From the sequence record NC_025445.1: a stretch of DNA of 40,981 bases. One strand, given 5' to 3'. Position 1 is the first letter of the stretch, and each line of letters starts with the position of its first letter. The DNA is from Escherichia phage J8-65. The notes under the pieces were generated by a model. It did no database searches and was not told the DNA's origin. It worked only from the letters and a program-made list of their open reading frames with translations. Shown here in pieces: positions 1 through 40,981 of this stretch. Position numbers and translations under genes: made by a program.

Positions 1-259
1 TCGACCCGAAGGAGCGCCTGCGCCCCCGTACGCCTGTGCGCGTGCGCGTGCATGACGTGTGCGCATTATGCGTGCGTGCCTGCGCGTGCGGTATTGCTCG
101 CGTGCGTGCGGTATAGTTCGCGCGTGCCCGTTTCCATTGTCGCGGTGTGGTGCTGTGTGGTGCTGCGTCCTGCTGCTGCGTGCTGCGCCACTGCTACCAC
201 TGGACGCGCCTGCGCTGGGCTGCTGGTGCTGGGCGGTGCTGCTGTGTGTATCGGTGGCT
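1..259. repeat. left direct terminal repeat (DTR)
   Basis: bases 1-259 are identical to 40723-40981; GT-rich, A-poor; typical T7-supergroup terminal redundancy. Confidence 0.85.
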
Positions 260-686
260 GGGCGCGGGGCTATCTATCTTTTTTCGTGGCGCTGCTGTCA
301 TAGCTCGCTTGCTGTGTGTGCTGTGTGTCGTGTGCGGTACTGTGTGCCATCCTGCTACGCTACCGCCTGCGCCCTGTGTCTCCAGCTCATCGCGTCACTG
401 TGTAACACTCTGATACTTGCTATCCGTTCGCGTTCACTCAATCGTCACTCCGTGTCTCTTTCGTTCCGCTCCGCGCTCCGCTATCGCACTGCGTGCTGCG
501 TCGCTTACGCTGCGTATCGCTACAGCTATACACTACAGTTACTTTCATTTAATCATTGATTTAAAAGGATTTATTTACGGTTATTCTGCTGTGTGTAAGC
601 TACGCAATAACCTATTCAATCAAATATTTATTATCAATGATTCCAGTGACTTATCGCCTTTTTGAGCTATTCAGTGAAAATAATTC

Positions 687-715
687 TTGCAATGTTGTTT
701 GTGATTTGCTGTAAT
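687..715 (+). promoter_or_regulatory. sigma70-like early promoter (TTGCAA-N17-TGTAAT)
   Basis: -35 TTGCAA 687-692, 17-nt spacer, -10 TGTAAT 710-715, in AT-rich block upstream of first genes. Confidence 0.5.
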
Positions 716-792
716 TCATCTCGCCGGACGACACAGCGTTAACGTGTCGGACGGTGTAAGACGGTAACACTGTTCTTTAACAATCTGGTGTG

Positions 793-821
793 TTGACAAG
801 GCAAGCTCACTATGCTGTAAT
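793..821 (+). promoter_or_regulatory. sigma70-like early promoter (TTGACA-N17-TGTAAT)
   Basis: consensus -35 TTGACA 793-798, 17-nt spacer, -10 TGTAAT 816-821. Confidence 0.6.
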
Positions 822-928
822 GCTTCCAGTCAGTCAGCAAGCTAAACAGTCATGGATAAAGACGTTAAAACCCACGTAGGCGAACTGATACGGTTTAATC
901 ATCTCAGAATGGGCGCTGATTAAAACGG

Positions 929-957
929 TTGACAGGATGAAACGAGTATGCTGTAAT
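929..957 (+). promoter_or_regulatory. sigma70-like early promoter (TTGACA-N17-TGTAAT)
   Basis: -35 TTGACA 929-934, 17-nt spacer, -10 TGTAAT 952-957; same architecture as 793-821. Confidence 0.6.
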
Positions 958-1007
958 GCACACCAGATTGACAGGCAGCAAGCCAGTCAGTCAGAAGTAA
1001 AAAGTAG

Positions 1008-1036
1008 TTGACAAGCTGAATACGATGTGATGTAAT
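1008..1036 (+). promoter_or_regulatory. sigma70-like early promoter (TTGACA-N17-TGTAAT)
   Basis: -35 TTGACA 1008-1013, 17-nt spacer, -10 TGTAAT 1031-1036. Confidence 0.6.
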
Positions 1037-1467
1037 CAGCACCGAGTTGAAAGGTTGCAAAACAACCTGCTCTGAGTGAACGTAAACTGGCCACGTAGTG
1101 TCACGGCCTCATGGGTATCCGGCGCAGCTAGGAACTGGTGAGGGCACCGCCGAAAGGCAATAGGGGTAGCGCCCGGTGCAAGGGAACGGAGAAGCGCGAT
1201 AGACGCAGCGCAGTATCAGCACAATCCCGAACGTCTTATAAGGCGCGGAGTGTAGCGGGTAGGTAGGCAAGCTGGTAACGGTGAGCCGGACTGCTGGAGG
1301 ACTCCTGAGAGTGGATGCAGACAATATCCACGGCGCGAAATGGGCGGGGCGATTTTTCAGGGTAGTGAATCCGACAAGCCAATCAATGCCAACGAGTGCA
1401 GACTGTACGGCGCGTCACAATGGGTTCACTATCCACCTGAAAATAGCCAACAACTGGAGAAATCAAT

Positions 1468-1857
1468 ATGTACCGTATCTATGCAAGCGCATATCGTCAG
1501 GGCAACGCTGAGTCAGTCAATCTGGCACTGCACTGCAAGGCACTGCGAACGGTGCAGGACATGTTCGGAGTGATTCCGGTCACACTGACAGGCAAGTTCG
1601 ACAATGCGTATGAGTTACGCATGGTCTTCCCTGTCGATGGAATCTACGAAATCCGGCAGGCTGTTAAGCTGTTTTGTAAAGCCTTCGAACAGGACTGCAT
1701 CATGGTAGTGACCAAAGACGACGATGCAATCTTCATGGACTCACCGTATCCGGGCAAGCCTGCTGGCAAGCTGGTCAGCAAGACTAACGAGGAAATGGAA
1801 GCCGGGCAGTTCACTGCTTGGACTTACGACGGTGAGCAATTTTGGGTAGTGGAGTAA
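1468..1857 (+). CDS. hypothetical early protein (129 aa)
   Basis: ATG start, GGAG upstream, first ORF after promoter cluster. Confidence 0.6.
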   Translation: MYRIYASAYRQGNAESVNLALHCKALRTVQDMFGVIPVTLTGKFDNAYELRMVFPVDGIYEIRQAVKLFCKAFEQDCIMVVTKDDDAIFMDSPYPGKPAGKLVSKTNEEMEAGQFTAWTYDGEQFWVVE

Positions 1858-2004: not shown

Positions 2005-2532
2005 ATGACTACTGTAAAATACACCGCGTTCAAAGACGCTGCGGCGCTGGATAAAGCTATCGAAGCGACCGTTAAAAAGGCGCACTCCCTCCGTAACGAG
2101 ATTCAGAACGTTGCGGTCGGCATTATCCTGCACGCTTACCATCACGGCGACTATACCCGTGCTGAATCCTTCACCAACCAACTGGGTGACGGCGTTCGTG
2201 GTAAAGCACTGGTTGACTGGTTCGTCCAGTTCGGCGGCCTGATTGTAGGCGAGCATGAGGGTGGCAAGTCTGGCTTCGTTGGCTGGAAAGGTGCCGACTT
2301 CATCAAGAAGAACATCGACAAGGCGAAAGCCACGATGTGGTGGACTTGCAAGCCGGAAGCGGCCTTCGAAGGCTTCGACCTGCAAGAAGCGCTGGACAAG
2401 CTCATTGCCAAAGCTGAGAAGGCAATGAACAAGGCCAATGAGCTGCGCCACGAAGGGCGCGATGAGGATGCGAACAAGGTTGTCGTGCCTCAGAACGTGC
2501 TGGATGGGCTGCGCAAGCTGAAAGCTGCGTGA
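2005..2532 (+). CDS. hypothetical early protein (175 aa)
   Basis: ATG 2005 with AAGGGG RBS (ORF-track start 1972 is GTG); function unknown. Confidence 0.6.
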   Translation: MTTVKYTAFKDAAALDKAIEATVKKAHSLRNEIQNVAVGIILHAYHHGDYTRAESFTNQLGDGVRGKALVDWFVQFGGLIVGEHEGGKSGFVGWKGADFIKKNIDKAKATMWWTCKPEAAFEGFDLQEALDKLIAKAEKAMNKANELRHEGRDEDANKVVVPQNVLDGLRKLKAA

Positions 2533-2539
2533 TTACTGA

Positions 2540-2563
2540 GAAGGCATTCAAGCGAGTGCCTTC
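2540..2563 (+). promoter_or_regulatory. post-stop GC-rich stem-loop
   Basis: TGATTACTGA then GAAGGCA-ttcaagcgag-TGCCTTC, 7-bp stem. Confidence 0.4.
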
Positions 2564-2610
2564 GATTGTAACCACGGCAATAATGCCACAATCCTAACTG
2601 GAGACTTAAT

Positions 2611-2922
2611 ATGTCCAAATTAACTGTAGTCCTGCTGAACAACCTGCCTGCCTCTGCTTTCGGTGAAGGCGTTAAACTGGAAGACGTGCAGAGCAAGCAG
2701 TACGTCGCAATCACTGACGGTCAGGGCTACCTGATTGCAGGCATCAACAAGGACGGCGACTCGAAGGAAGAAATCGAAGCGCACTTCCGTGAACAGGGTC
2801 TGGATGCTGACATGCCGCTGGCGCTCATCGCCATGCTGAACGGCGTGCCTTTCGTTGACGCTGCCGACGTTGTAGGCGCAGATATCGACGAGGTTTACAG
2901 CGTCGAGTCTGACGACGAGTAA
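2611..2922 (+). CDS. small acidic early protein, paralog 1 (103 aa)
   Basis: strongly acidic with C-terminal ESDDE; shares a D-x-Q-x-x-L...KDGD motif with next two genes. Confidence 0.65.
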   Translation: MSKLTVVLLNNLPASAFGEGVKLEDVQSKQYVAITDGQGYLIAGINKDGDSKEEIEAHFREQGLDADMPLALIAMLNGVPFVDAADVVGADIDEVYSVESDDE

Positions 2923-2936
2923 GCTGGGCTAACTGA

Positions 2937-2959
2937 CAGGCCATTCGATGAGTGGCCTG
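2937..2959 (+). promoter_or_regulatory. post-stop GC-rich stem-loop
   Basis: AACTGA then CAGGCCA-ttcgatgag-TGGCCTG. Confidence 0.4.
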
Positions 2960-2988
2960 AATTGTTATTCCAAGCCAAAGGAGGCTGC

Positions 2989-3258
2989 ATGATTCGTGTG
3001 AGTTTGGTCAAAGACGCATCCGGCAAGGTGGTATTCTACCTGCTGGACAATCAGAAAGGGCTGACCCTGCTGGCGTACGTCAAAGACGGCGACCCAAGTA
3101 CGCAGGAGATTCTGGACTTCCTGATTGGTCAAGAGACCTATAGCGAGCTGCTGTTTGACGTGTCTGGCCGCACCGAAGCTGCCAATATTGAGTACGTCGA
3201 GGAACAGCACGGCGAGGTGACGCTGGAGTTCATCGGCACCATCCCGTTCGCTGAGTGA
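2989..3258 (+). CDS. small acidic early protein, paralog 2 (89 aa)
   Basis: ATG 2989 after AAGGAGG (ORF-track start 2962 is TTG); LDNQKGLTLLAYVKDGD motif. Confidence 0.65.
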   Translation: MIRVSLVKDASGKVVFYLLDNQKGLTLLAYVKDGDPSTQEILDFLIGQETYSELLFDVSGRTEAANIEYVEEQHGEVTLEFIGTIPFAE

Positions 3259-3265
3259 TTACTGA

Positions 3266-3287
3266 CAGGCCATCTGCGGGTGGCCTG
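3266..3287 (+). promoter_or_regulatory. post-stop GC-rich stem-loop
   Basis: TGATTACTGA then CAGGCCA-tctgcggg-TGGCCTG; same stem as 2937-2959. Confidence 0.4.
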
Positions 3288-3328
3288 AACTGTACTCACC
3301 CAACAATCAAAGTCTAAGGAGACTTATC

Positions 3329-3604
3329 ATGGCAAATGGTTACATCGTACGTGGCACCGAATCAAACAAAGTCGTGGCCTACGCACTGGAAAAGAGCGGC
3401 CACTATCTGGCGCACACTCGCCGCGACAACGAGCCGACCGATAGCGAAGGCGTGTTGGCCGAACTGAAACGCGAAGGCGTGCCGCCTGAACTCATCTTCA
3501 TCCTGTCTGGTATCCAGATTCACGAACTGCAAGATGCAGCCAAGCGTGTGTGGGGTGAGGGCGTAGAGCTGGAGCACATCGGTATCGTGGACGAAGCTGC
3601 GTAA
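3329..3604 (+). CDS. small acidic early protein, paralog 3 (91 aa)
   Basis: TAAGGAG RBS; LEKSGHYLAHTRRDNEP motif related to paralogs 1 and 2. Confidence 0.6.
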   Translation: MANGYIVRGTESNKVVAYALEKSGHYLAHTRRDNEPTDSEGVLAELKREGVPPELIFILSGIQIHELQDAAKRVWGEGVELEHIGIVDEAA

Positions 3605-3619
3605 CAGCGGGATTGACTC

Positions 3620-3643
3620 AAGCCAGTGTCTCGGCGCTGGCTT
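3620..3643 (+). promoter_or_regulatory. post-stop GC-rich stem-loop
   Basis: AAGCCAG-tgtctcggcg-CTGGCTT. Confidence 0.35.
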
Positions 3644-3680
3644 TATGGCAATACTGCCCCATCCATTTGAGGATTTAAAC

Positions 3681-3932
3681 ATGGCTAAGTTCGAACTGGT
3701 AAAATTCATCGACCCGTCTGACAACTCTGAGACCTTTGCTCAGTTCACCGACGACCGCACACAGGTGGCTATCTACACCAGTGAGTCGGCGGCGCGTGAC
3801 AACTTCGGTGAAGAGATATTCTTCGATTCGGTTGAAGAAGTGCGCAAAGGTGGCGGCCCTTACGCTGATGCACTGGAAGCGGCGCTGGAAGAAGGCGAAG
3901 TCGTTGACACTCTGGACGACGACGAAGAGTAA
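3681..3932 (+). CDS. small highly acidic early protein (83 aa)
   Basis: ATG 3681 with GAGGA RBS; about 24 D/E vs 6 K/R; C-terminal DTLDDDEE. Confidence 0.6.
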   Translation: MAKFELVKFIDPSDNSETFAQFTDDRTQVAIYTSESAARDNFGEEIFFDSVEEVRKGGGPYADALEAALEEGEVVDTLDDDEE

Positions 3933-3944
3933 GCGTGACGCCCG

Positions 3945-3968
3945 GTTGCCTCCTTGCGAGGGGGCAAC
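3945..3968 (+). promoter_or_regulatory. post-stop GC-rich stem-loop
   Basis: GTTGCCTCC-ttgcga-GGGGGCAAC. Confidence 0.35.
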
Positions 3969-4004
3969 ATGGCAATCATGCCATAACCTACTGGAGTATT
4001 GAAC

Positions 4005-4418
4005 ATGACTAAACTCGTACTGATTCACGGCATCGCTGGTGAGAAATTTGACGACGGTATCTCTGCACCTGTGCTGGCGCTGGAAGGTGAAGAGACCTTC
4101 GCTGTGCTGCAAGGTCTGGCTGAGGGTAGCGATATGGTACTGGCATCAGAAACAATTATCGAACAAGCCAGCGCAATCCGTGAGGCCGAGCACCTGCGTG
4201 GTGTAGCCGCAACGCTCGGTCACTGCGCTGGTAACGGCGGCCTGCGTGGGCATTCGGTCGGCGGTGTATTCCCCTGCGTAATCTTCTCGAAGGGCAACCC
4301 ACATGTGCATCTCGACTGGTGTTTCCTCGCACCGAACGGCGATGAGTTCGACGGCTTCGTAAGTTATGAAGATGCGTATGCAGCCGCGCAACAATGGCTG
4401 GAGGAAAGAGAGGTATAG
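4005..4418 (+). CDS. hypothetical protein (137 aa)
   Basis: ATG 4005 with GGAG RBS (ORF-track start 3999 is TTG). Confidence 0.6.
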   Translation: MTKLVLIHGIAGEKFDDGISAPVLALEGEETFAVLQGLAEGSDMVLASETIIEQASAIREAEHLRGVAATLGHCAGNGGLRGHSVGGVFPCVIFSKGNPHVHLDWCFLAPNGDEFDGFVSYEDAYAAAQQWLEEREV

Positions 4419-4419
4419 T

Positions 4420-4716
4420 ATGAGCAGAAGTGCTAAGTGGGATGCGTTGGTTCAGTGGGTGAAGGACAGCTTCGGCCCACCACCACAGCGCGTGGAAGTT
4501 GCAGACCCTGAGCCATTCGAGTACGTGACCAAGACCAGTGAGCAACTGGAGATTGGTGACTACATAGTAGCGTACTCTGGTTATGTGCAGCGCATCGGTG
4601 CCGTCGAGTATGATGGCAAACGACTGGTCGTTACGAAGGCAGGCCATGCTCCTGAGTATGAGTTCTACGCCTACGAGAATGACAAGTTCTCTATCCGTAA
4701 AGTAAAAGGTAAATAA
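4420..4716 (+). CDS. hypothetical protein (98 aa)
   Basis: ATG 4420 after GAGGAAAGAGAGG RBS, abuts upstream stop. Confidence 0.55.
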   Translation: MSRSAKWDALVQWVKDSFGPPPQRVEVADPEPFEYVTKTSEQLEIGDYIVAYSGYVQRIGAVEYDGKRLVVTKAGHAPEYEFYAYENDKFSIRKVKGK

Positions 4717-4719
4717 ATC

Positions 4720-5235
4720 ATGGCTATTAACTTCGCAACATTTGACAAACAGCAGTTCGAAGTAACCAAACGTCTGGCCGCAGAGATTGACGAGCGCCCG
4801 GAAGTATCCGACGTGATTGAATTTCGTGGTGGCTTCCTGCCAAAGATGACGTACGTGGCAGCAATTAAGGCAGGCCGACTGGACATGGTGGATATCATCC
4901 CGCCGACCCGCACTGGTGCCATCATCGCACGCAACATCACACTGCTGGCTGGTCTCGGCACCAAGTCTCTGGATGCAGCAGGTGAAACAGAGCGTGCTGT
5001 TCAGCTCCGCATGGCGGCAACGTTGGCAATCCGTTTCGCATGTGAAGAGACGGTACACGCCAGCTACCACGACTGGTATCAGGCATGTGAGAATGTGCCT
5101 GCCGACCTGAGCGAGACGCACGCAAGTGTGCTGTTCGCTGGCGAGGTACTGGATGCCATGCTGCAACAGTTGAAGGAAGGACTGGGTGAGCTGCTGGCGG
5201 CGGCGAGCGAGGTGAAACGTGCAACGCTCCACTGA
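4720..5235 (+). CDS. hypothetical protein (171 aa)
   Basis: ATG start, tight packing with flanking genes. Confidence 0.6.
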   Translation: MAINFATFDKQQFEVTKRLAAEIDERPEVSDVIEFRGGFLPKMTYVAAIKAGRLDMVDIIPPTRTGAIIARNITLLAGLGTKSLDAAGETERAVQLRMAATLAIRFACEETVHASYHDWYQACENVPADLSETHASVLFAGEVLDAMLQQLKEGLGELLAAASEVKRATLH

Positions 5236-5239
5236 TTTA

Positions 5240-5392
5240 GTGGTGCGTAAATCACCCACTGGTAAACACTGGTGGGTGGTGTACGCTGACCTACCGGGCA
5301 GACCGTTTGCTGTCCGTGACACAAAGTGGCAGGCCGAAGCTAAGCGTGATGACCTGCAACGTATCGTAAACAGAATGGGAGTACCAGCATGA
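5240..5392 (+). CDS. possible small protein (about 50 aa, GTG start)
   Basis: open frame fills the gap between flanking genes and ends in ATGA overlap with next start; no clear RBS. Confidence 0.25.
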   Translation: MVRKSPTGKHWWVVYADLPGRPFAVRDTKWQAEAKRDDLQRIVNRMGVPA

Positions 5393-5631
5393 CCATCATC
5401 AAAGACGAAAGCAAACTCGAAGTCGGTTCCGCATACAAGCTGAGCGGCGGTGTGTTCTGTTCGGTTGCACTGGACGTGAACGCAGGCAAGTTCATCTTCA
5501 AAGGGCGTGACGAATACAACCCGGACATGCTGCACTTCGAAGGTGTTACCGATGGCCGGGCGCAGTTCTTGTACCCGGAGCGGCTGGCCGATGGGCAGTA
5601 TGATTTGTCCAAGGTTGAAACAATCAAGTGA
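5389..5631 (+). CDS. hypothetical protein (80 aa)
   Basis: ATG start, GGGAG upstream. Confidence 0.55.
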   Translation: MTIIKDESKLEVGSAYKLSGGVFCSVALDVNAGKFIFKGRDEYNPDMLHFEGVTDGRAQFLYPERLADGQYDLSKVETIK

Positions 5632-5663
5632 CTTACTCGTGGCATTTCGTGAGAGATGCCACC

Positions 5664-5903
5664 ATGAAAGTAACTGTATTGCACAACATCGGAGGAGATA
5701 TGCTCAAAGTAATATTGTTGTTCCTGCTTCTGGTAATTATTTGGGGAGCGTTATGGGTGGGTCTTGCATCACTGGTGCTTATCCCTGCGGTCGGTGAGTC
5801 AGCCACTTCAACACTGGGCACACTGCTCGGCATGTTGGTGGGCTGGGGTCTGATGCAGTTGAGCCTGAGTGTAGGCCAGAATCGGGGGTGGATTAAATGG
5901 TGA
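5664..5903 (+). CDS. small membrane protein with two predicted TM helices (79 aa)
   Basis: ATG 5664; VILLFLLLVIIWGALWVGLASLVLIPAV and LGTLLGMLVGWGLMQLSLSV hydrophobic segments. Confidence 0.55.
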   Translation: MKVTVLHNIGGDMLKVILLFLLLVIIWGALWVGLASLVLIPAVGESATSTLGTLLGMLVGWGLMQLSLSVGQNRGWIKW

Positions 5904-6337
5904 AGCCTAAGTATAAAGTCGGGGATGAAATCGTAGGCGACGAAGGCACTGGCACCCGGTCGGGTAAGCTGAGTATCATCGCTTGGGTTAACCCTGACCG
6001 CCGAGCGTGGGAGCGTAGCGGGGAGACTCGTTACATCGTGAGCTGGATTGGTGAGCGCCTGAATGCGCAGCCGGATATCAGCCACTACAAATCTGACTGG
6101 CTGGAAGAGAACACCAGTCTGGTCAGCACGCCAGCCGAGAAGCGCGGTCGGTTCATGTGCTTGGTCGAAGGCAGCAACGCGCCGCCGAAGGTTGAGCACA
6201 TCACTGAGCGCGAGGCGCGTGAAGAAGCTGAACGTCTGGCAGAGCGGTGCGGAGGTACTGTCCGTGTGCTGCAAGTTGTGGCCAGCGTGAAGATGAAGAA
6301 GAAGATTCTGTACACACCGGACTGGGATAACGAATGA
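5897..6337 (+). CDS. hypothetical protein (146 aa)
   Basis: ATG start overlapping upstream stop. Confidence 0.55.
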   Translation: MVKPKYKVGDEIVGDEGTGTRSGKLSIIAWVNPDRRAWERSGETRYIVSWIGERLNAQPDISHYKSDWLEENTSLVSTPAEKRGRFMCLVEGSNAPPKVEHITEREAREEAERLAERCGGTVRVLQVVASVKMKKKILYTPDWDNE

Positions 6338-7047
6338 GAAAGTCAGTGAGCAATGATGAGTGGCCGGAGCTGGCGAGGCGTCTGCCGATAGGACAAAAGC
6401 GTCGGACGTTTCACGCTTGCTCACGCTCATTCAGTAAGACCAACTTCGAGTATGGCCGGAACAGCGAAGGCGTGTGGTGCAAGTGCCATCGCTGCGGCCA
6501 TGCTGATTTCAAACCCCTCAACCATGCACCGTATGTACCGCCAGCCAAAGAGCAGGTGAAGATACCGGGCGACGTTGTTCCGCTTATCGAAGTGATAGCG
6601 AAGCAGCCCGGACTGCTACTGCCAGCGTTGGAGAAGTATGAGCTGCTGCCACACCTGAGCGTGCTGACTGCCAGCCCAACGTACGGGCGTATCTACTTGC
6701 CGGACAACTCGGCAAGCTACTGTGGTCTGGACTACACCGGGCGGCAGTTCATTCCGTGGCGCTCGCCACACAACCATCTAATGGCAGTGACAGTAAGTAA
6801 TCACGACGACGATGAGTTCAAAGGGATATGGATTTACGACAGCGCATCAGCATATCTCGACCACGTTCGTCGTGGTGACAGAGTGGATGGCAATGCAGCG
6901 TTCGTAGCCAATGCCGACGATGCCACCGTACGCGCTCTGGTTAGCGTTGTGCTGGCCAATCGTTATGAAGTGATATCATTGCAGCACCGACAGAGCGACA
7001 GGCTCAGGCGTGAGCTGAGAGTGTGTGGCAGGGTGCGAACAATATAG
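6334..7047 (+). CDS. putative primase-like zinc-ribbon protein (237 aa)
   Basis: C-x16-C-x-C-x2-C cluster (CSRSF...WCKCHRCGH); sits directly upstream of helicase as in T7-like primase-helicase modules; no clear TOPRIM seen. Confidence 0.45.
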   Translation: MRKSVSNDEWPELARRLPIGQKRRTFHACSRSFSKTNFEYGRNSEGVWCKCHRCGHADFKPLNHAPYVPPAKEQVKIPGDVVPLIEVIAKQPGLLLPALEKYELLPHLSVLTASPTYGRIYLPDNSASYCGLDYTGRQFIPWRSPHNHLMAVTVSNHDDDEFKGIWIYDSASAYLDHVRRGDRVDGNAAFVANADDATVRALVSVVLANRYEVISLQHRQSDRLRRELRVCGRVRTI

Positions 7048-7056
7048 GAGGGTAAT

Positions 7057-8322
7057 GTGTTAGACAAACTGTTGCTCTCTGTCATGCGTGAGCGAGGGAA
7101 GTATAACTCCCTGCGCCATGCCATTCCAGAGGACACTATGAGTCAGACCACAGGCTACATGCTGCGTGCGTATGGCTCATACTTCGAGGCGTTCCCGGAT
7201 TCAGATTACGTGGATATGGAAACGCTAGGCACACACGTCCGGCTCAAGACTGGGAGTACACCGGAGCAGATGGCTGCGTTCGAATCGCTATGCCAGCAGC
7301 TCAAGGAATACCAGCCGACGAAGCAGCAGACCGAAGGCATCATCGACCAGTTAGTCGAGCTGGATACAGCAGGCAAGGTTAACCTCCTTGCGCAGAGGTA
7401 CGACAATGGCGATGAGATTGATTTCATCTATGAGCTGGGCCGCCTTGCAGAAGGCGCACGCCGCAGTCGAGGGCAGTCATCTGTCACTGATTACGTTGAC
7501 GATGATGTGGTTGATATTATCAATCGGACGGATGATGACCACGGTTTCAAGTTCGGTCTCATGTGTTTGCAGGACAGCGTTAGGGTACTTCTCCCCGGTG
7601 ACTCCGTTGCAATCGGCGCTCGACCCGACAGTGGCAAGACTTCCTTCATCGCGTTTAACCTTACGAGAATGGCGGCGACAGCAGCGAAGCTGTATCCGGG
7701 CCGACCAATCCTATGGTTCAACAACGAAGGGCAGGGCATCAACATCATCCCGCGCATCTACCAAGCGGCGCTCGGCTGTACGCTCCCGGAGTTAAAGGCA
7801 CTGGGTGCAGACAGGAAGAAGTTGCATGAGAAGTACGCGAAGGCGTTGAATGCTCCGGCCAACATCATACGTGTGAAGGACATGCACGGTGCAACGTTGG
7901 CCAAAGCGGAGCAGGTGATTGAAGCAATGAATCCCTGCATCGTGGTGTGGGATATGCTGGCAAACTTCAAGTTGTCTGTGGCTGACGCTAACAGCAACAA
8001 GGCCAGCCAAGTCGAGCAGCTCTGGCAGGAGGTACGTGAGCTGGCGGTACGTCATGACTTCGTATCGCTGGCTACGGTTCAGGTATCCGCAGACGGTGCC
8101 GACGATATGTTCCCCGCGCTAGACGCACTCAAGGATTCCAAGACTGGTATCCAAGGTGCGACCGATGTGATTGTCATGCTGGGTTCCGTTGACGACCCGG
8201 CGCTGGCAGCGAGGCGCGGCGTGAGCACTCCGAAGAACAAGCGGCAGATAGCTGGGCGTCCGTCCAACGTCCGTTCGCAGGTTCACTTCTATGCTGATAA
8301 ATGTCAATTCGAGGATATGTGA
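7057..8322 (+). CDS. DnaB-like replicative DNA helicase (421 aa)
   Basis: GTG start 5 nt after AGGAGG; Walker A GARPDSGKTS; position matches T7 gp4 helicase domain. Confidence 0.75.
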   Translation: MLDKLLLSVMRERGKYNSLRHAIPEDTMSQTTGYMLRAYGSYFEAFPDSDYVDMETLGTHVRLKTGSTPEQMAAFESLCQQLKEYQPTKQQTEGIIDQLVELDTAGKVNLLAQRYDNGDEIDFIYELGRLAEGARRSRGQSSVTDYVDDDVVDIINRTDDDHGFKFGLMCLQDSVRVLLPGDSVAIGARPDSGKTSFIAFNLTRMAATAAKLYPGRPILWFNNEGQGINIIPRIYQAALGCTLPELKALGADRKKLHEKYAKALNAPANIIRVKDMHGATLAKAEQVIEAMNPCIVVWDMLANFKLSVADANSNKASQVEQLWQEVRELAVRHDFVSLATVQVSADGADDMFPALDALKDSKTGIQGATDVIVMLGSVDDPALAARRGVSTPKNKRQIAGRPSNVRSQVHFYADKCQFEDM

Positions 8323-9660: not shown

Positions 9661-9670
9661 CGGAGGGGTA

Positions 9671-13038: not shown

Positions 13039-13046
13039 CTGATAAG

Positions 13047-13066: not shown

Positions 13067-13073
13067 AGGTTTT

Positions 13074-24410: not shown

Positions 24411-24422
24411 AGGAGACTTATC

Positions 24423-27415: not shown

Positions 27416-27416
27416 T

Positions 27417-28151: not shown

Positions 28152-28153
28152 TC

Positions 28154-33800: not shown

Positions 33801-33948
33801 TGCGACTGGCGGTTCCCTGCTGTCGGGTGATATTGACCAAGCTGGGCATGATGCTCGCAAAGCTGCGGGTAACATCATTCAAGCACTTCCCCTCATTTCC
33901 ATTGTGCCGGGTGTCCGAGCACTCAACGAAGCAGTTAAGGGCGAATAA
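30847..33948 (+). CDS. internal virion protein C (1033 aa)
   Basis: largest structural ORF, position as T7 gp16-like ejection protein. Confidence 0.7.
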   Translation: MITQESLDKFMAPKQGANAPTLVIPAPVKAETLSTPLQDATRQGAVEQFEKMQELEATPIATALSASVKNWDTTQLFDAAFNKPTFQADPNFKPNEALQQVQFPIGEDDRTFLFKSKSMDEFNWRTQQLQEMRERTQLAQTAPVMNAVLQFADPLYLATDLLSMGAGTALKLGRLGTAAVGAASTAAAMTAVGNEARPVSQNEIIFAAALHGAATTAFYRPAPVQRSLADMSPEEFAAEMQRRNGIDPNNPPQFDPENAMAPLAMSLGFGGRRGAMEVDEVPESIRATAQRGLDLARRGEQTNPKRPFLEWSLFKTFSQHSDESSALAGRLLDDPLNPNMTSAASIQRETQARFGVLLNQYEDTLRHALNTDGWTNVRRFVDPVGYRRAQQEFEQAVRLELDRRMIDPNFKGANANVAQAADRLGEYSRAVGRELEAKGMVEPGFVEKNPYYYPRRMNVTKVEQAEQLLGKKAFMKQMTTAVQRGIGSDRPTANVIAHAMVERARRKGYGIDNSGHIINKEGRDELLEIINNAKGFDEAAKARASALLREAGEDSGRAPMLKARINIDMMHQLGPNLQVRDLFDDSIASMMDSYNRRITGRLALHEAGLGTDAERAAAREALAKSIPDGNARRQALDQYDNIISYYMGAPVGEEMPQFMRQLSALTQATGLAASGLWQLVEYGTMMQRFGAVNTFRAMMRTVPEARALFKQMRASTVEGRQLALDTEEALTAAVASDIRMRPIMQHYDDMFSADKSPWVMRMEHLRDATMFINMQKYIHFHQTRTNAALVMQTLRKAAEGDAKAIAAMKTYGANDQLLADIRKEVGKSGTKPDAWDEGVFNRSRIVMMNAMDDAIVRARVGELPAFAEFSTLGKFLFTFRRFVAATHNKTLVGTWNREGARGLATLMAYQYPLAMMATAANNVISGKGFDDKRPIGALAGQALNYLGAIGFASEFTGVLTGQQRSFGAPGLLFLDRMYGIAGATAATGGSLLSGDIDQAGHDARKAAGNIIQALPLISIVPGVRALNEAVKGE

Positions 33949-36332
33949 TGGCCAATAGCTACAACGCATACGTGGCAAACGGAACGCAGACCGCGTTCCT
34001 TGTCACCTTCGAACAACGAGTGTTCACGCAGATTCAGGTGTACCTTAACTCCGAACTCCAGACGAGTGGGTACACCTACAACTCCGTGACCAAGCAAATC
34101 ATATTTGATACCGCCCCGCTCGCCGGGGTGATTGTCCGACTACAACGGTACACCTCAGAAGTGCTGCTGAACAAGTTCGGTCAGGATGCTGCCTTCACTG
34201 GTAGCAACCTCGACGAGAACTTTGAGCAGATTCTCTTCAAGGCAGAAGAGACGCAGGAAGCATGGCTGGCTCCGCTTGACCGTGCCCTGCGCGTACCGAA
34301 CTCTGAGGTGTCAATCAACGCACTGCCTAACGTCGCAGGCCGCCGCAACAAGGCGCTGGGCTTCGACAACAACGGCCAACCCTTCATGGTGCCGCTGGTT
34401 GATATACCCGACTCTGCGCTGGCTATCGCGCTGGCGATGAATGACGGCGGTAAGTGGATTGGTACTCTCGGCGGTGGCACATTCCTCGACCGTCAGGATA
34501 CTGTCTGCCTGTCTGAGTTCACCAACAACACTGGTTACGCCTCTGTCGCCGCTGCGTGCCAAGCCTGCTTCGACTACGCCAAAGCCAACAACAAGGTTGT
34601 GGACGCTCGCGGTTGGGAAGGTACTGTGAACTCAACCATCACTATGGATGGTATCGAGGTTGTCGGCGGTACGTGGAACGGCACAGCGGATATCCGTCTG
34701 CTGAATGCTACGTTCCGCAACTTCTCTGCATCAAAGGTTCGTGTCTGCTACTGGGGCGGTAATGTACGCATTGCTGATTACGAGTTCACTGACCACCCAT
34801 CGGCATCGAAAGTTGCCAGCATCCTGTTCCAAGGCAACATCGCCGGGGGCAGCTACGTCATTGAGAACGGCGTACACCGCAACGGTTACTTCGGTATTCT
34901 CCAGCAGGGTACTGGTGAGGCCATTGATAACGGTGTGATTCGCAACATCGCTCTGATGGATATGTCCGGCGACGGCATTGAGATGAACGTAATCAACAAG
35001 CACTATGACGGTGGCCTGTCGATTGAGAACATCTACCTCGAAAATATCAACGGTATCAACCCAACCTCCAACCCATCCTTCGTCTCCAACTGGGGTATCG
35101 GGATTGGTCTGGCTGGTCAAGGGCCGTTTGGCTGGGATGCTGCTGAGACCCAGTACGCGAAGAACATCACAGTCCGTGGTGTCCATGCTCCGCGTGGCGT
35201 GCGTCAGGTCATCCACTTCGAGGTGTCCAAGAACTGCTCGGTGTACGACGTACACGCTAACCCTGACCTTACTGTCTCCAACGGTACAGGTCTGACGGCT
35301 GCTGGCGTTATTACCTACGGCTGCAAGGATATCGTCATTGACGGCGTGTACGGTGAGCCTATCGTGGGCAGCACAGGTACTGACCCGGCTGCTGTGCGTC
35401 TCGTGATGTGCGAGTGGGGTTCCAACCAAGCAGGTGCTGGTGGCGTGCCGGGTGCATCGAACCCATCGTTCAACATGACCCTGCGTAACATCTACACCAA
35501 GACTGGCCGTATCTACGCTGGTATTGGTTCCGATGATGTGAACACCAACGTGTACCACCTTGAGAACATCCACTGCTACCGTCTGAGCCTCTTCGGTGTG
35601 GCCACCATCCTGAACATGACCAACGTGACGGGTGTTGACTTCGACTGCGTAGGCGATGACTCCAGCGGCGGTACGTCCTCCAACGGTGTGTACCCGCGAC
35701 GCAAGACCGTCCTCAATATGGTGAACGTGAACTTCTATGGCCCCGGCAACACCGAGGGTGCCCTGTACAGTAAAGCTCGCTACTCGGATATCAGTACGCT
35801 GAACTCCAACGTGCGTGCTATTCCGTACACCAACATCCAAGGTGACGTCGGCGTTATCCTGTCTCCGGTCAACCGTATGTACACACTGCCGAACGACCTC
35901 GCAACTCTGACTGGTGGGGAGTTCCCGACTGGTAAAGAGTTCTGCGAGGGTACGGTACTGTTCAAGACGGACGGTACAGGTGGTAACTTCATCGTGACCC
36001 GGTTCGGTGCCTACATCCCGGACGACGGCAACAACTTCAAGGTGCGTGCTGCTGCCGCTGGCCAGACGTATCTGGAGCAGAACCTGACTCCGGCTGGTAC
36101 TCAAGCCTCGACCTCGTGGCTGTATCATAAGCCTATCTCTGCTGGTACTCGCCTGAACATTCCGGGCGCAGGGCCAAGCGGCGGTACGCTTACGGTCACT
36201 GTGATGCGAGCGCCGTATCAGGTAGACAACAACATCGGGAACCCGGTGCGCATTGATATCAGCCCGGCAATCGTAACTGCGATTCCGGCAGGTACTCAGC
36301 TCGCCGCCACGTACCCGGTCGCATTCATCTAA
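33948..36332 (+). CDS. tail fiber / tailspike with probable beta-helix depolymerase domain (794 aa)
   Basis: N-terminal ~120 aa parallels T7 gp17 tail-attachment domain; central region has repetitive NG/GG-rich beta-helix-like repeats. Confidence 0.75.
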   Translation: MANSYNAYVANGTQTAFLVTFEQRVFTQIQVYLNSELQTSGYTYNSVTKQIIFDTAPLAGVIVRLQRYTSEVLLNKFGQDAAFTGSNLDENFEQILFKAEETQEAWLAPLDRALRVPNSEVSINALPNVAGRRNKALGFDNNGQPFMVPLVDIPDSALAIALAMNDGGKWIGTLGGGTFLDRQDTVCLSEFTNNTGYASVAAACQACFDYAKANNKVVDARGWEGTVNSTITMDGIEVVGGTWNGTADIRLLNATFRNFSASKVRVCYWGGNVRIADYEFTDHPSASKVASILFQGNIAGGSYVIENGVHRNGYFGILQQGTGEAIDNGVIRNIALMDMSGDGIEMNVINKHYDGGLSIENIYLENINGINPTSNPSFVSNWGIGIGLAGQGPFGWDAAETQYAKNITVRGVHAPRGVRQVIHFEVSKNCSVYDVHANPDLTVSNGTGLTAAGVITYGCKDIVIDGVYGEPIVGSTGTDPAAVRLVMCEWGSNQAGAGGVPGASNPSFNMTLRNIYTKTGRIYAGIGSDDVNTNVYHLENIHCYRLSLFGVATILNMTNVTGVDFDCVGDDSSGGTSSNGVYPRRKTVLNMVNVNFYGPGNTEGALYSKARYSDISTLNSNVRAIPYTNIQGDVGVILSPVNRMYTLPNDLATLTGGEFPTGKEFCEGTVLFKTDGTGGNFIVTRFGAYIPDDGNNFKVRAAAAGQTYLEQNLTPAGTQASTSWLYHKPISAGTRLNIPGAGPSGGTLTVTVMRAPYQVDNNIGNPVRIDISPAIVTAIPAGTQLAATYPVAFI

Positions 36333-36632: not shown

Positions 36633-38392
36633 TGGATTTACAACGCCGCATGGTGATGGCAGGAATCGTTCGCGCACACTACGAGAACAACTTCCCGCTG
36701 TTCCTGCATGACTACTTCGCATGGCTGGGCTTTGACCTCACTGAAATGCAGCTCGATATTGGCCGCTACATGGCCGACCGGACGCTCAAGAACAAGTGCG
36801 TCATGGCTCAGCGCGGTGAGGCCAAGTCCACCATCGGCATTGCCCGTGCCCTGTATGAGTTCGTCCAGATGCCTAACGCCACCGTGCTGCTGGTATCTGG
36901 TTCTGACGACTATGCGGGTACGCTCTCGCACGCCATCGTATCTGCCATTATGCAATGGGACAGGTTGGAATGGCTGCGCCCTGAAACTCGCGCTGGCGCA
37001 CGTACCTCTTATACAGACGGTTTCGATGTACACCACGCATTTCGTATTCCTGATAAACAGCCCTCTGTCAAAGCGGTCGGTATCTTCGGCCAGTTGCAGG
37101 GGAACCACGTATCGCTGTTGATTGCCGATGACGTGGAGACTACCAGTAACGGTAGCTCTCCTGCCAACCGCGCCCGTATCAACACCCTGACCAAAGAGTT
37201 CGCGGCTATCGCCAACGACGGCGCAGAGATTCTGTACCTCGGCACGCCGCAGACTCAGGATTCCATCTACAACACGCTCCCGCAGCGTGGCTTCGACGTT
37301 CGCATCTGGCCCGGTCGTTTCCCAACGGTTGAGGAAGAAGAACGCTACGGCGGCTGTCTGGCCCCGTGGATTAAGCAGAAGATGGATGGCCACCCTGAAC
37401 TGCGTACTGGTTACGGTATCCTTGGGAACCGTGGTGCGCAGACTGACCCTCAGCGTTACTCCGAAGAGAAGCAGCTACAGAACGAACGAGACTACCAGCA
37501 GGCAGGCTTCCAGCTACAGTTCATGCTGGACACGTCGCTGTCAGATGCACTGAAACAGACTCTGCATATCCGGGATGTTATCTTCTTCCACGGCTCGCCG
37601 CAGTCTGCACCGGAGTATCTGCACTGGTCGAATCATTCGCGTCACTTGGCCGAGCTGCCAATGGACTTCCCACTCGCTCGCGCCCAGCTCTATCTGGCCG
37701 CTGACTTCTCTGAGACGTATGTACCATTCACGAATACCAAGGCGTTTCTTGACCCTGCTGGTGGTGGGTCGGACGAATCCGTTCTCTTCGCCACAGCTTC
37801 TATCGGCCCGTTTATCCACGTCATCGGTATGCACGTCTACCACGGCGGCCAGACGGAAGAGAACATCAAGGCGGCGGTAGAGTGGTGCCACGAGCTGGGT
37901 GTCCAGCACATCACCATTGAGGACAACATGGGCCACGGTGCCGTGACCAACATGTACCGTGGTGAGATTAAGCGTCAAGGACTGACAATCGGCTGTGAGG
38001 GTATTTACTCCAGCGGCCAGAAAGAAGTGCGTATCATCAATCGGTTGAGTCCTATCCTCCAGCGCCACCGCGTGGTAATCCACTGGTCGGTTGTTGAGGA
38101 AGACCTGCGCCTGTGCCGGGCCATGAACAACGGTGGCCGGGAATATAGCCTGTTCTGGCAGATGCAGAACTTGACGCAGGACAAAGGCTCCATTCCGCAC
38201 GATGACCGCATCGAAACCCTATCCGCTGCCGTGTATCTCCACGCCGAGGTACTCCAGCAAGACGAACATGAAGAGGCCCAAAAGCGTGAAGTGGCCGCCG
38301 CTCGTGAGTTTGTTGCCAACCCAATGGGGTACGACGACTCGAAGTGGCGCAGTCATAAGCGTGTCCGTGGCACTCGTCGGAGAATCCGCTAA
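36632..38392 (+). CDS. terminase large subunit (586 aa)
   Basis: same length as T7 gp19; ATPase-like N-terminus and DPAGGGSDES nuclease-like motif. Confidence 0.85.
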   Translation: MDLQRRMVMAGIVRAHYENNFPLFLHDYFAWLGFDLTEMQLDIGRYMADRTLKNKCVMAQRGEAKSTIGIARALYEFVQMPNATVLLVSGSDDYAGTLSHAIVSAIMQWDRLEWLRPETRAGARTSYTDGFDVHHAFRIPDKQPSVKAVGIFGQLQGNHVSLLIADDVETTSNGSSPANRARINTLTKEFAAIANDGAEILYLGTPQTQDSIYNTLPQRGFDVRIWPGRFPTVEEEERYGGCLAPWIKQKMDGHPELRTGYGILGNRGAQTDPQRYSEEKQLQNERDYQQAGFQLQFMLDTSLSDALKQTLHIRDVIFFHGSPQSAPEYLHWSNHSRHLAELPMDFPLARAQLYLAADFSETYVPFTNTKAFLDPAGGGSDESVLFATASIGPFIHVIGMHVYHGGQTEENIKAAVEWCHELGVQHITIEDNMGHGAVTNMYRGEIKRQGLTIGCEGIYSSGQKEVRIINRLSPILQRHRVVIHWSVVEEDLRLCRAMNNGGREYSLFWQMQNLTQDKGSIPHDDRIETLSAAVYLHAEVLQQDEHEEAQKREVAAAREFVANPMGYDDSKWRSHKRVRGTRRRIR

Positions 38393-39063
38393 TGTCTTTG
38401 ATTTCTATCACTAATCAGCAGCGGTACGATATTGGCTACCGTGCCAACATCGCCGCCAATCTGACCCAACGCTTCGTGAACAACACGAAGACACTGACGG
38501 CTGAGCAGGCTGCGCCAATCGACGCGGCCATTACCCAGCTCATGACGGCTCTGGAAGCCGCTGGCTACACCTCTGTACCGGAAGGCTCTGCCATCGTCGC
38601 AGACGGCGCTGCAACCACTGTGGTGAACGCGAACGGTACTGTGCAGAAGGCTGCCACCTTCGACGTTAACGGTGAGACGGTTACTGTCGCCCTGCCTGCT
38701 ACTGTCGGTATGAAGTCCAACAACGACTCCATCTCTGTGCAGAACGTGAATGGTGCGGCTGGTGTAACCTCCACCTCGTACGTGGACAGCAACGGTGTAC
38801 TGGTCGCCGCCCGGCTGCCAGCAACCACGGCTGTAATCGCCAGTGGCAACAACATCCAGATTCGCAACTCCGCTGGCACCGCCATCGGTAACGCGACCTT
38901 CACCGTATCCAACGGTGTCATCACGTACGGTACACTTCCTGCGACCATTGCTGGCGTAGCGAACGGTGCCACCCTCACTGGTGTAGCGCCGACTGGCACG
39001 TACACCAATACCGTAACCTTCACTGTCGCTGGTGGTGTTATCACTGGCATTGCACTGTCCTAA
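38392..39063 (+). CDS. beta-rich repeat protein, possible fibrous or receptor-binding accessory (223 aa)
   Basis: three internal repeats (ATFDVNGETVTVALPAT / ATFTVSNGVITYGTLPAT / VTFTVAGGVITGIAL); Thr/Val/Gly/Ala-rich. Confidence 0.5.
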   Translation: MSLISITNQQRYDIGYRANIAANLTQRFVNNTKTLTAEQAAPIDAAITQLMTALEAAGYTSVPEGSAIVADGAATTVVNANGTVQKAATFDVNGETVTVALPATVGMKSNNDSISVQNVNGAAGVTSTSYVDSNGVLVAARLPATTAVIASGNNIQIRNSAGTAIGNATFTVSNGVITYGTLPATIAGVANGATLTGVAPTGTYTNTVTFTVAGGVITGIALS

Positions 39064-39074
39064 CGGGAGATTTT

Positions 39075-39260
39075 ATGTCCTTAGCAACTTCTACCGCCGC
39101 TGAGCGTGCGGGACTGGTGGCGGCCTGCAACATGCTGGCCAAATACCTCAACGTGTACACGGAAGACTACCACCTGAATACGGCTGACACTGACCTGCTG
39201 GCTGAGCATCAGGTGTACATCGACCGTGTGAAAGCAGCTACGGCTGCCATCGACGCATAA
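39075..39260 (+). CDS. hypothetical protein (61 aa)
   Basis: GGGAG RBS; no TM segment. Confidence 0.5.
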   Translation: MSLATSTAAERAGLVAACNMLAKYLNVYTEDYHLNTADTDLLAEHQVYIDRVKAATAAIDA

Positions 39261-39270
39261 GAGGTAGCGT

Positions 39271-39762
39271 ATGAAACTGTCTCGGCTATTGGCCGGGGCA
39301 GTCCTCTCATTGTCTCTGACTTTGACGGGCTGCTCCGCAACTAGCGCACTGTCTGCTGTAACTTCGGCTGTCTCTCCTAACAAGCCGGAACTGACGGCAC
39401 AGGTAGGTGCAGAGAACACGAAGCAAGGCATCGGTGTGACTGCGAAACAGTCCGACGAAACCGAAGTCGGTGACGTATCAGGTAACGCGAAAGTGGATAC
39501 CGCTAAACAGGGTAGTAACGCTACGACCGTCAAGGACGTTACAGGCGGCTCTGTAAACGCTTCTAAGCAGGGGTCTCAGATGACCCAAGGGAACGTACAG
39601 GCTAAGACTGTTATCGTCTCACAGAGCGACCCACGCAGCCTATTGTGGGCATTTGGCATGGGCCTTACGTGTATTCTTGGTTTGGTAATGTGGTTTGTAC
39701 CATCTCCGTGGAAGAGGAAGGTAAGAGATGACGGAAGCAAAACGAAAGGAGCCGACTCCTAA
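39271..39762 (+). CDS. candidate unimolecular spanin: lipoprotein with C-terminal TM helix (163 aa)
   Basis: N-terminal signal with lipobox LTLTGC; C-terminal LLWAFGMGLTCILGLVMWFV TM segment then basic tail; topology as phage T1 gp11. Confidence 0.55.
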   Translation: MKLSRLLAGAVLSLSLTLTGCSATSALSAVTSAVSPNKPELTAQVGAENTKQGIGVTAKQSDETEVGDVSGNAKVDTAKQGSNATTVKDVTGGSVNASKQGSQMTQGNVQAKTVIVSQSDPRSLLWAFGMGLTCILGLVMWFVPSPWKRKVRDDGSKTKGADS

Positions 39763-40114
39763 CATCCACTCGCGTATGGGTGCAGTGGAGGCTCGTATGC
39801 AGACCGTAGAACTACGCCTCGACAAACACGAAGTGCAAATCGCTAACCTTGAGAAAGGCGACGCTGCGATGCTCACGAAGCTGGCTGAGAACGACTCGCG
39901 CTGGCAGCAGGTTCAGCAGCAGCTCTTGGTGGTCGAGCAGATTCAGGATATCCAGAGAACTATGAGCCATATCGGTAAGTTGTTTACGGCGGCAGCACAC
40001 GCCGTCAAATGGTGCCTGTTAACCGCATCCCTGTGCAGCGGTGTGTATTTAGCAATTAAGGCTGGCGACCTCACAGCTCTCCAGTCCTTTATCACAAGCA
40101 TTATGGGGATGTAA
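39728..40114 (+). CDS. lysis-cassette membrane protein, candidate atypical holin (128 aa)
   Basis: GAGGAAGG RBS; ~85-aa coiled-coil-like N-terminus then one hydrophobic segment WCLLTASLCSGVYLAI; sits between spanin and endolysin. Confidence 0.45.
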   Translation: MTEAKRKEPTPNIHSRMGAVEARMQTVELRLDKHEVQIANLEKGDAAMLTKLAENDSRWQQVQQQLLVVEQIQDIQRTMSHIGKLFTAAAHAVKWCLLTASLCSGVYLAIKAGDLTALQSFITSIMGM

Positions 40115-40650
40115 TGACTAACTTTGAAATCTGTATGAAGTTCACCGGGCTGGCAGAAGGCGGGTACACCAAGCTGCCCGGTGACACTGGAGGGGAAACG
40201 AATCATGGAATTAGCGACGCTCGTGATGGCAAACTGGATGGCCGAATTTGTGGTGTCCCTACTGGGCTTGGTGGCTCTATTTGTGTGCCTGTCAAACAGC
40301 TCACCAAAGAGCAAGCCAACGCTATCTACCGGGCCGAGTATTTCGACCCCATCAAAGGTGACGAGCTACACCCTGCGATTGCATGTGCCGTGTTCGACTA
40401 CGGTGTCAACTCCGGTATCAGCCGTGCGGCGAAAGCTCTACAGCGGGTATGCGGCGTTGCACAAGACGGGGTTATTGGCCCTGCAACCGTGGCAGCAGCC
40501 AAACGTCTGGAACCTCACTCCGCAGCAGCATCCATCTGTGACCTTCGTATTGCGTTCCTAAAGGCTTCTACAGCCCCGACAATCGTTCGGTATAGGGATG
40601 CCTTGGTTGCCCGTGCAAAACGCTGTAGCGCGTACTGTGCGACGTTATAG
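40114..40650 (+). CDS. endolysin, GH108 muramidase with PG_binding_3-like C-terminal domain (178 aa)
   Basis: N-terminal LAEGGYTKLPGDTGGETNHGI matches the GH108 EGGY motif; C-terminal region resembles PG_binding_3; no N-terminal SAR/TM segment. Confidence 0.75.
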   Translation: MTNFEICMKFTGLAEGGYTKLPGDTGGETNHGISDARDGKLDGRICGVPTGLGGSICVPVKQLTKEQANAIYRAEYFDPIKGDELHPAIACAVFDYGVNSGISRAAKALQRVCGVAQDGVIGPATVAAAKRLEPHSAAASICDLRIAFLKASTAPTIVRYRDALVARAKRCSAYCATL

Positions 40651-40722
40651 GGGCATTGAAAGCTAGGACATTGAACAGGCGTTTCCCGGCTTGAAAATTG
40701 ACTATTTGTGCGTGGGCCTCCC

Positions 40723-40981
40723 TCGACCCGAAGGAGCGCCTGCGCCCCCGTACGCCTGTGCGCGTGCGCGTGCATGACGTGTGCGCATTATGCGTGCGTG
40801 CCTGCGCGTGCGGTATTGCTCGCGTGCGTGCGGTATAGTTCGCGCGTGCCCGTTTCCATTGTCGCGGTGTGGTGCTGTGTGGTGCTGCGTCCTGCTGCTG
40901 CGTGCTGCGCCACTGCTACCACTGGACGCGCCTGCGCTGGGCTGCTGGTGCTGGGCGGTGCTGCTGTGTGTATCGGTGGCT
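40723..40981. repeat. right direct terminal repeat (DTR)
   Basis: identical to 1-259; window ends at last repeat base so the true DTR could be longer. Confidence 0.85.

Follow-up and report, generated by a model that had tools for sequence, protein, structure and literature searches.

Escherichia phage J8-65 is a colanic-acid-degrading phage that was isolated by Schmerer, Molineux and Bull, who reported a colanidase activity and placed the phage in the phiKMV group, closely related to LIMEzero (PMC4179555). It was later named the type species of Bonnellvirus (PMC7552041), the genus of which it was the first described member. The genome and its phiKMV-like character are already known, having been published in 2014. 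In this group of phages, a late RNA polymerase (RNAP) gene is the hallmark that parts the phiKMV-, KP34-, Fri1-, Prado- and PhiM1-like phages from the T7-, SP6- and KP32-like phages (PMC3765740; PMC6115819). Here, we examined the ends, the gene layout and the regulatory elements of the J8-65 sequence (accessions KM247287 and NC_025445; species Bonnellvirus J865) over its full length of 40,981 nucleotides, which is referred to below as the window. In this sequence, a unique part of 40,722 bp is followed by the second copy of a 259-bp direct terminal repeat (DTR); the window is very probably the complete linear genome of a virulent podophage with a phiKMV-type layout. In the present taxonomy, J8-65 belongs to Autographivirales, Autoscriptoviridae, Stentvirinae and Bonnellvirus, while phiKMV is a member of the same family, in the subfamily Krylovirinae.

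A preliminary description of the window had stated that bases 1-259 are repeated exactly at 40723-40981. This repeat was recovered as described, and 259 is the length of the longest prefix of the window that equals a suffix; since the repeat is exact over 259 bases, it cannot arise by chance. The features at the two ends are the following, where ^ marks a terminus.

1..259, plus strand: left DTR, with the motif CCCCCGTACG at nt 23-32
268..284, plus strand: pause-like motif GGCTATCTATCTTTTTT (GGGTATCTGTCTCTTTT in relatives), 9-25 nt past the DTR end
40683..40737, plus strand: conserved block over the left DTR boundary, ...GGGCCTCCC^TCGACCC..., a candidate site of terminase recognition and cutting
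40723..40981, plus strand: right DTR, identical to 1-259

The DTR is poor in A (7%) and is composed of short G/T-rich low-complexity units. It lies wholly inside the 1.5 kb of non-coding DNA (the junction) that separates the lysis genes from the early promoters, a location shared with the DTRs of T7 (160 bp long) and phiKMV (414 bp long). For the group, lengths of 216-428 bp have been published (PMC3765740), and 259 bp is within that range. An alignment of the junctions of six genomes showed that the interior of the DTR diverges freely, and that the left boundary lies within a block of about 55 bp (...CCCGGCTTGAAAATTG...GGGCCTCCC^TCGACCC...). This block is kept in every bonnellvirus aligned, is 81% identical in LIMEzero and is homologous to the left ends of the phages PhiM1 and PP90. 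In the Pectobacterium phage PhiM1, which has an annotated repeat of 293 bp, the left junction reads ...GGGCCT^CCCTCCAC..., compared with ...GGGCCTCCC^TCGAC... in J8-65, and the two termini are 3 nt apart. Relative to the PhiM1 terminus, the 386-bp repeat of PP90 begins 15 nt earlier, and it reaches further right; the annotated ends of PP90 may be imprecise.

A second element has a nearly fixed distance to the left end. Counted from that end, the first base of the motif CCCCC(A/G)TA(C/G)G is nt 26 in T7, phiKMV, KP34 and PhiM1 and nt 23 in J8-65, where the motif's only two plus-strand copies (23-32 and 40745-40754) are both in the repeats. Variants were found in LKA1 (CCCCCATG at 26), in JG068 (a similar sequence at 28) and in SP6 (at 29); the ends of JG068 were determined by Sanger run-off (PMC3765740). 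Among the genomes compared, the motif thus appears to be a supergroup-wide left-end signature, which would be useful for orienting permuted assemblies. The right end of J8-65, GGTGGCT^, resembles those of PhiM1 (GGTGGCTTGC^) and phiKMV (GAGTGGCTAG^). Beyond the right DTR boundary, ATCTATC followed by TTTTTT starts 13 nt further on, and other bonnellviruses have ATCTGTCTCTTTT instead. In T7, the sole ATCTGTT of the genome is at 161-167, starting at the first base after its 160-bp DTR, and in JG068 the corresponding ATCTRTC-type motif (216-222) spans the repeat boundary. The T7 class II pause/termination signal consists of ATCTGTT and a U-run at the concatemer junction (bioRxiv 10.1101/2021.01.11.426313), and by analogy we infer that the J8-65 motif at 268-284 may act as a T7-like pause/termination signal at the junction. 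The conservation of these boundary elements is a direct observation, and judged from it the 259-bp repeat very likely represents the genuine physical ends, to within about 3 nt.

Several points weigh against this reading. The left terminus is 3 nt off the spacing seen in T7, phiKMV, KP34 and PhiM1, an offset that may be real or may reflect imprecise annotation. The pause-like motif matches the T7 ATCTGTT at only 5-6 of 7 positions; the pause signal is reportedly strictly sequence-specific for T7 RNAP (bioRxiv 10.1101/2021.01.11.426313), and the first 1 kb of phiKMV has no ATCTRT at all. Finally, the published methods comprise only MiSeq reads and SSAKE assembly, with no end determination (PMC4179555). 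This last point also favours the best surviving alternative, namely that the repeat is an assembly artefact, an overlap from a linearised circular or concatemeric read graph, and that the virion ends lie elsewhere or are permuted. The low complexity of the repeat, the circular permutation of most related contigs and the artefact-like 121-bp end overlaps in the records of two relatives, RZ4 and BHUENT7, speak for it as well. These two overlaps, which are probably circular-assembly artefacts, lie at a different, non-homologous junction position, and the contigs with the same endolysin in Logan and NCBI are circular permutations or have unrelated ends, being uninformative on the physical ends. 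On the other hand, an overlap at an arbitrary place would fall within the non-coding junction of 1.5 kb in only about 4% of cases, and both boundaries of the J8-65 repeat coincide with conserved elements. The spacing from the terminus to CCCCCRTA is within 3 nt of that in phages with annotated or Sanger-determined ends, and the right end is like those of PhiM1 and phiKMV and is followed by a motif like that of the T7 concatemer junction. Furthermore, a k-mer size of 259 is not usual, and J8-65 has a T7-type terminase. Weighed together, these points leave the artefact only a slim chance.

Two further candidates were rejected. The left terminus is the centre of a hairpin that folds in J8-65 (z = -1.45), but the other bonnellviruses do not conserve this hairpin, and it was dropped for that reason. 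The genome of Kc261 is 42,203 bp long in its paper and 42,432 bp in its record, a gap of 229 bp that looked repeat-sized; the record holds a single copy of the junction. Returning to the preferred reading, in which the ends are physical, the deposited 259-bp repeat in all likelihood marks the true ends with an error of a few bases at most, and because most bonnellvirus records are arbitrary circular permutations, J8-65 can be used as an orientation reference.

The gene layout was compared by tblastn of 30 J8-65 proteins against phiKMV, LIMEzero and T7. The results showed collinear matches in LIMEzero for all 30 proteins (26-81% identity) and in phiKMV for 16 of the 30 (24-42%; RNAP 31%, DNA polymerase 41%, capsid 41%, TerL 42%, portal 35%). 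In T7, only five of the 30 proteins were matched, and the RNAP gene is early, at 3171. In J8-65, the RNAP gene (from 17175) lies downstream of the DNA polymerase gene (from 9671) and beside the structural block (portal from 20553), and the lysis cassette (39271-40650) is found at the right end, after TerS/TerL (36342-38392) and two intervening open reading frames (ORFs), both as the preliminary description had it. Its remark that many early and replication genes have no recognisable function also held: a function could be assigned to none of ten early ORFs, seven of which match no PHROG family, and the replication block holds several uncharacterised ORFs. Of the features of the late-RNAP group, J8-65 has a single-subunit RNAP, an RNAP gene before the structural genes, genes on one strand, distal packaging genes and right-end lysis genes; a further feature of the group, short DTRs at the physical ends, is very probable. 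Accordingly, the designation as phiKMV-type stood in the broad sense, that is, a late RNAP gene and collinear genes, and failed in the strict sense of membership in Phikmvvirus (Krylovirinae) and with regard to the type of lysis cassette.

The likenesses and differences can be given for each reference phage. Like J8-65, phiKMV has an RNAP gene that closes the replication block and adjoins the structural genes, right-end genes for terminase and lysis, DTRs, a left-end cluster of host promoters, a terminator after the capsid gene and a left-end CCCCCGTA motif; unlike J8-65, it has a 414-bp DTR, a DNA ligase gene, which J8-65 lacks, and minor head protein genes after the lysis genes. The Pantoea phage LIMEzero (Waewaevirus) has the same type of lysis cassette, phage promoters annotated at homologous sites and a conserved junction block, but differs in genus, in tail fibre/spike genes, in promoter sequence (TAAAGGCAAKCACTAWG) and in having a record without DTR. 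T7 (Studiervirinae) shares DTRs, a boxA-like element in the leader, a first gene with an anti-restriction function, a single-subunit RNAP, a terminase of T7 type and a left-end CCCCCATAGG, while it differs in its early RNAP gene, its many phage promoters and its dispersed lysis genes.

Megablast searches of a phage collection with positions 1-25000 and 20001-40981 as queries gave Escherichia phage smaasur (MN850625; classified as Bonnellvirus J865) as the best match; the identity is 95.6% in the first 25 kb, of which 97% is covered, and 96.6% in the right part. In an exact-sequence comparison, four proteins encoded in the window, namely the RNAP, the SAM lyase, a hypothetical early protein and the tailspike, were identical to J8-65 accessions. 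Smaasur has the same gene order and promoter motif as J8-65, whereas its early gene corresponding to 5897-6337 is only 49% identical and its SAM lyase 90% identical; its record is circularly permuted, in the opposite strand and without a terminal repeat. For a genus, the ICTV criterion is about 70% nucleotide identity. The strict-sense assignment of J8-65 to Phikmvvirus could draw on the same layout and the collinear homologues; nevertheless, phiKMV is not among the matches of either megablast search, the proteins are only 24-42% identical with matches for 16 of the 30, and J8-65 lacks a DNA ligase, has another lysis cassette and is classified in Stentvirinae, so that this assignment is in effect refuted. 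A T7-type phage with early RNAP expression, for which the single-subunit RNAP, the T7-type terminase, portal and tail tube, the DTRs and the shared boxA-like element could be cited, is refuted just as firmly by the gene order, with the RNAP gene at 17175, after the whole replication module, instead of at 3171, and by the mere five proteins that match T7.

The late-RNAP layout is thus retained, and the gene content and order behind it are given below. Genes were mapped from the closest annotated relative and then checked with Pfam and PHROGs. Every mapped gene is on the plus strand; the long minus-strand ORFs showed no Pfam family above the curated cut-off, their sole match with E<=0.01 being far below it, and ARAGORN found no tRNA or tmRNA in the genome.

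1468..1857, plus strand: SAM lyase ("SAMase"), first gene, anti-restriction (PF23780, E=5e-26; protein AIM40503.1)
2005..6337, plus strand: eleven small early genes without assigned function, most of them separated by strong stem-loops
6334..17165, plus strand: whole DNA metabolism module, including small ORFs
6334-7047, plus strand: primase
7057-8322, plus strand: DnaB-like helicase
8977-9660, plus strand: nucleotidyltransferase-like protein
9671-12136, plus strand: family A DNA polymerase
13228-14205, plus strand: 5'-3' exonuclease
14180-14512, plus strand: endonuclease VII
14512-15633, plus strand: DNA repair exonuclease
15808-16335, plus strand: PNKP-type phosphatase
17175-19604, plus strand: single-subunit RNAP, 809 aa (PF00940, E=2e-89)
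20289..36332, plus strand: structural module
20289-20549, plus strand: virion protein
20553-22115, plus strand: portal
22126-23346, plus strand: scaffold
23370-24362, plus strand: major capsid
24373-24395: terminator-like hairpin after the capsid gene, positioned as the annotated terminators of LIMEzero and phiKMV
24423-24971, plus strand: tail tubular A
24971-27415, plus strand: tail tubular B
27417-28151, 28154-30850 and 30847-33948, plus strand: internal virion proteins
33948-36332, plus strand: tailspike colanidase
36342-36632, plus strand: terminase small subunit TerS, T7 type (PF11123 and PF22530 for TerS/TerL)
36632-38392, plus strand: terminase large subunit TerL, T7 type (PF11123 and PF22530 for TerS/TerL)
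38392..39260, plus strand: two ORFs without assigned function, 223 aa and 61 aa
39271-39762, plus strand: u-spanin, 163 aa, with lipobox LTGC and a C-terminal transmembrane segment
39728-40114, plus strand: putative holin
40114-40650, plus strand: GH108 endolysin with a peptidoglycan-binding domain, predicted to be soluble

The SAM lyase represents the T3-type anti-restriction function (PF23780). It is followed at 1864-1983 by a hydrophobic mini-ORF of 25 codons (MTMSTALCVIAACWVIDQRLSRRRG) and then a strong hairpin (z = -4.2); a 41-bp stretch here (1943-1983) shares 97.6% identity with early-region sequence of two Klebsiella phages, Putnam and K24PH164C1, whose DNA is otherwise unrelated. The stem-loops after most of the early genes are likewise strong (z = -3 to -4.6). 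The J8-65 RNAP is 31% identical to phiKMV gp26 and 28% identical to T7 gp1, and three small genes separate its gene from the start of the portal gene. Over 1-20 kb, a region that takes in the early genes, the replication genes and the RNAP gene, the GC skew is about +0.1; over 20-41 kb it is about zero or negative, and the change coincides with the passage from the RNAP gene to the structural genes.

In the lysis cassette, the spanin has a lipoprotein signal, MKLSRLLAGAVLSLSLTLTG^C (LTG^C), is hydrophobic from about aa 122 to 145, matches phrog_1804 (Rz-like spanin) and shows the features of the unimolecular T1 gp11 family, in which J8-65 has been listed (PMC6139136). No signal-anchor-release (SAR) signal was found in the sequence of the endolysin. 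The order spanin-holin-endolysin is that of the KP34- and PhiM1-like phages (PMC6115819) and differs from the phiKMV set of holin and SAR endolysin together with Rz and Rz1. Between TerL and this cassette, the 223-aa protein is hypervariable: its identity among bonnellviruses is 44-94%, whereas J8-65 and smaasur have identical TerL sequences. The 223-aa protein contains repeated NG..T/V..LPAT units, has relatives located after the terminase in PhiM1-like and KP34-like phages and may be a surface or receptor-binding accessory protein. Its 61-aa neighbour weakly matches phrog_9732, the same PHROG as the 223-aa protein; a common N-terminus of the two was considered and discarded, the BLASTP match (E=2.1) being not significant even though both match this PHROG.

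The regulatory elements of the genome, most of which lie in its left 1.5 kb, are listed below.

535..548, minus strand: candidate leftward phage RNAP promoter in the left non-coding region, at one edge of the AT-rich stretch 531-720
687-715, 793-821, 929-957 and 1008-1036, plus strand: four sigma-70-like early promoters, found by a regular-expression match
771-788, plus strand: boxA-like TGTTCTTTAACAATCTGG
1037..1467, plus strand: non-coding structured leader of the early transcript, 430 nt, from the last early promoter to the SAM lyase start codon
5664..5677, plus strand: candidate phage RNAP promoter upstream of the replication module, homologous to the annotated LIMEzero promoter 7294-7313
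19630..19643, plus strand: candidate phage RNAP promoter 26 nt after the RNAP stop codon, homologous to the annotated LIMEzero promoter 20330-20349
19870-19883, plus strand: promoter copy with one mismatch

The candidate phage promoters are three exact copies of the 14-mer ATGAAAGTAACTGT, of which that at 19630-19643 heads the structural genes. In the relatives, the same three homologous sites bear a variant specific to each genome: TGAAAGCTACTAT in Kc261, TGAA(A/G)GTGTCTAT in BHUENT7, TGAA(A/G)GTGACTAT in RZ4 and TGAAAGTA(A/T)CTG(T/A) in Lidtsur, where the copies differ from one another by single bases. This co-variation of the motif within each genome is directly observed and is strong evidence that the sites are promoters of the phage's own polymerase. 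In an alignment of the RNAPs, the position of T7 N748 in the specificity loop is K in J8-65, H in Kc261 and N in the others, and that of T7 R746 is G, H or N; the loop residues thus differ in parallel with the promoter variants (J8-65, Kc261 and RZ4: GTAACTGT, GCTACTAT and GTGACTAT, respectively). The leftward copy is kept in all 19 bonnellvirus junction sequences that reach its position, one short contig ending before it. It sits beside a stretch of 70% A+T and points through poorly conserved, A-poor sequence to the DTR, against the direction of all genes. T7 has a leftward promoter of host type, A0, in the same left-end region. As hypotheses, the leftward promoter of J8-65 could serve in priming replication or in transcription across the concatemer junction during maturation.

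The four predicted early promoters share the architecture TTGACA/TTGCAA-N17-TGTAAT with a TGn extension, of which the genome contains only these four matches on both strands, and they are conserved in the relatives. A generic sigma-70 scanner missed them because the -10 hexamer is TGTAAT: in all four, its second position is G, where the consensus has an A that normally does not vary. This departure counts against the predicted role of the four sites as host promoters. The boxA-like element among them has a core 10-mer, TCTTTAACAA, that also occurs in the T7 leader (815-824), and the 11-mer of the relatives, CTCTTTAACAA, matches T7 from position 814. The boxA of rrn operons reads TGCTCTTTAACAA.

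The leader that follows is better conserved than its flanks. RNAalifold analysis of nine sequences gave 124 pairs, and compensatory double changes occur in 14 of these; 98.5% of the cells pair, compared with 34-39% for slid partners, and the 14 pairs changed on both sides compare with 1-4 in the slid controls. The many conserved G-U pairs indicate that the plus-strand RNA is the folded molecule. The folding z-score of the single sequence is modest (-2.0). Just upstream of the ribosome-binding site, the last 100 nt or so (1348-1448) form a long, imperfect hairpin that is invariant and that we take to resemble a T7-type RNase III site; by this analogy, the hairpin ahead of the first gene is a candidate RNase III site. 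Rfam showed no relevant match for the whole genome at gathering thresholds or for positions 1-2100 at E<=1, where two sub-threshold microRNA matches fell in the GC-rich repeat. A scan of IMG/VR with an invariant 16-mer of the leader returned J8-65, Lidtsur, one other bonnellvirus and ten unrelated matches in coding sequences; the leader thus appears to be confined to Bonnellvirus.

Taken together with layout and homology, these elements suggest that J8-65 most likely works as T7 and phiKMV do. The left end would enter the cell first, and host RNAP would start at the four sigma-70-like promoters (687-1036) and transcribe the structured leader, the SAM lyase gene and the small early genes. The replication genes would be expressed next, followed by the phage RNAP; we infer from the position of its gene, last in the replication block, that the polymerase appears late, as in phiKMV-type phages. 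It would then use its own promoters (5664, 19630 and the weaker 19870) for the structural, packaging and lysis genes. Replication would give concatemers joined through one copy of the repeat, the T7-type terminase would cut within the conserved element at the left boundary, and the repeat would be duplicated during packaging. Lysis would be brought about by the holin, the soluble GH108 endolysin and the single-protein spanin.

A more tentative proposal, which we regard as possible rather than probable, is that the left 1.5 kb of the bonnellviruses is an undescribed control module that combines the leftward phage promoter, the pause element at the edge of the repeat and the structured leader. 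We found little literature on Bonnellvirus, and the promoter variants and specificity loop, the leftward promoter, the junction motif and the leader RNA are not mentioned there. These left-end regulatory features are the only part of the genome that might repay more work. If the proposal is true, the module would tie transcription of the phage to the processing of its ends or to replication in a phage of the late-RNAP kind, and the bonnellviruses would offer a natural series of orthogonal polymerase-promoter pairs. Each of the regulatory elements provides a testable hypothesis on transcription-coupled genome maturation in late-RNAP phages.

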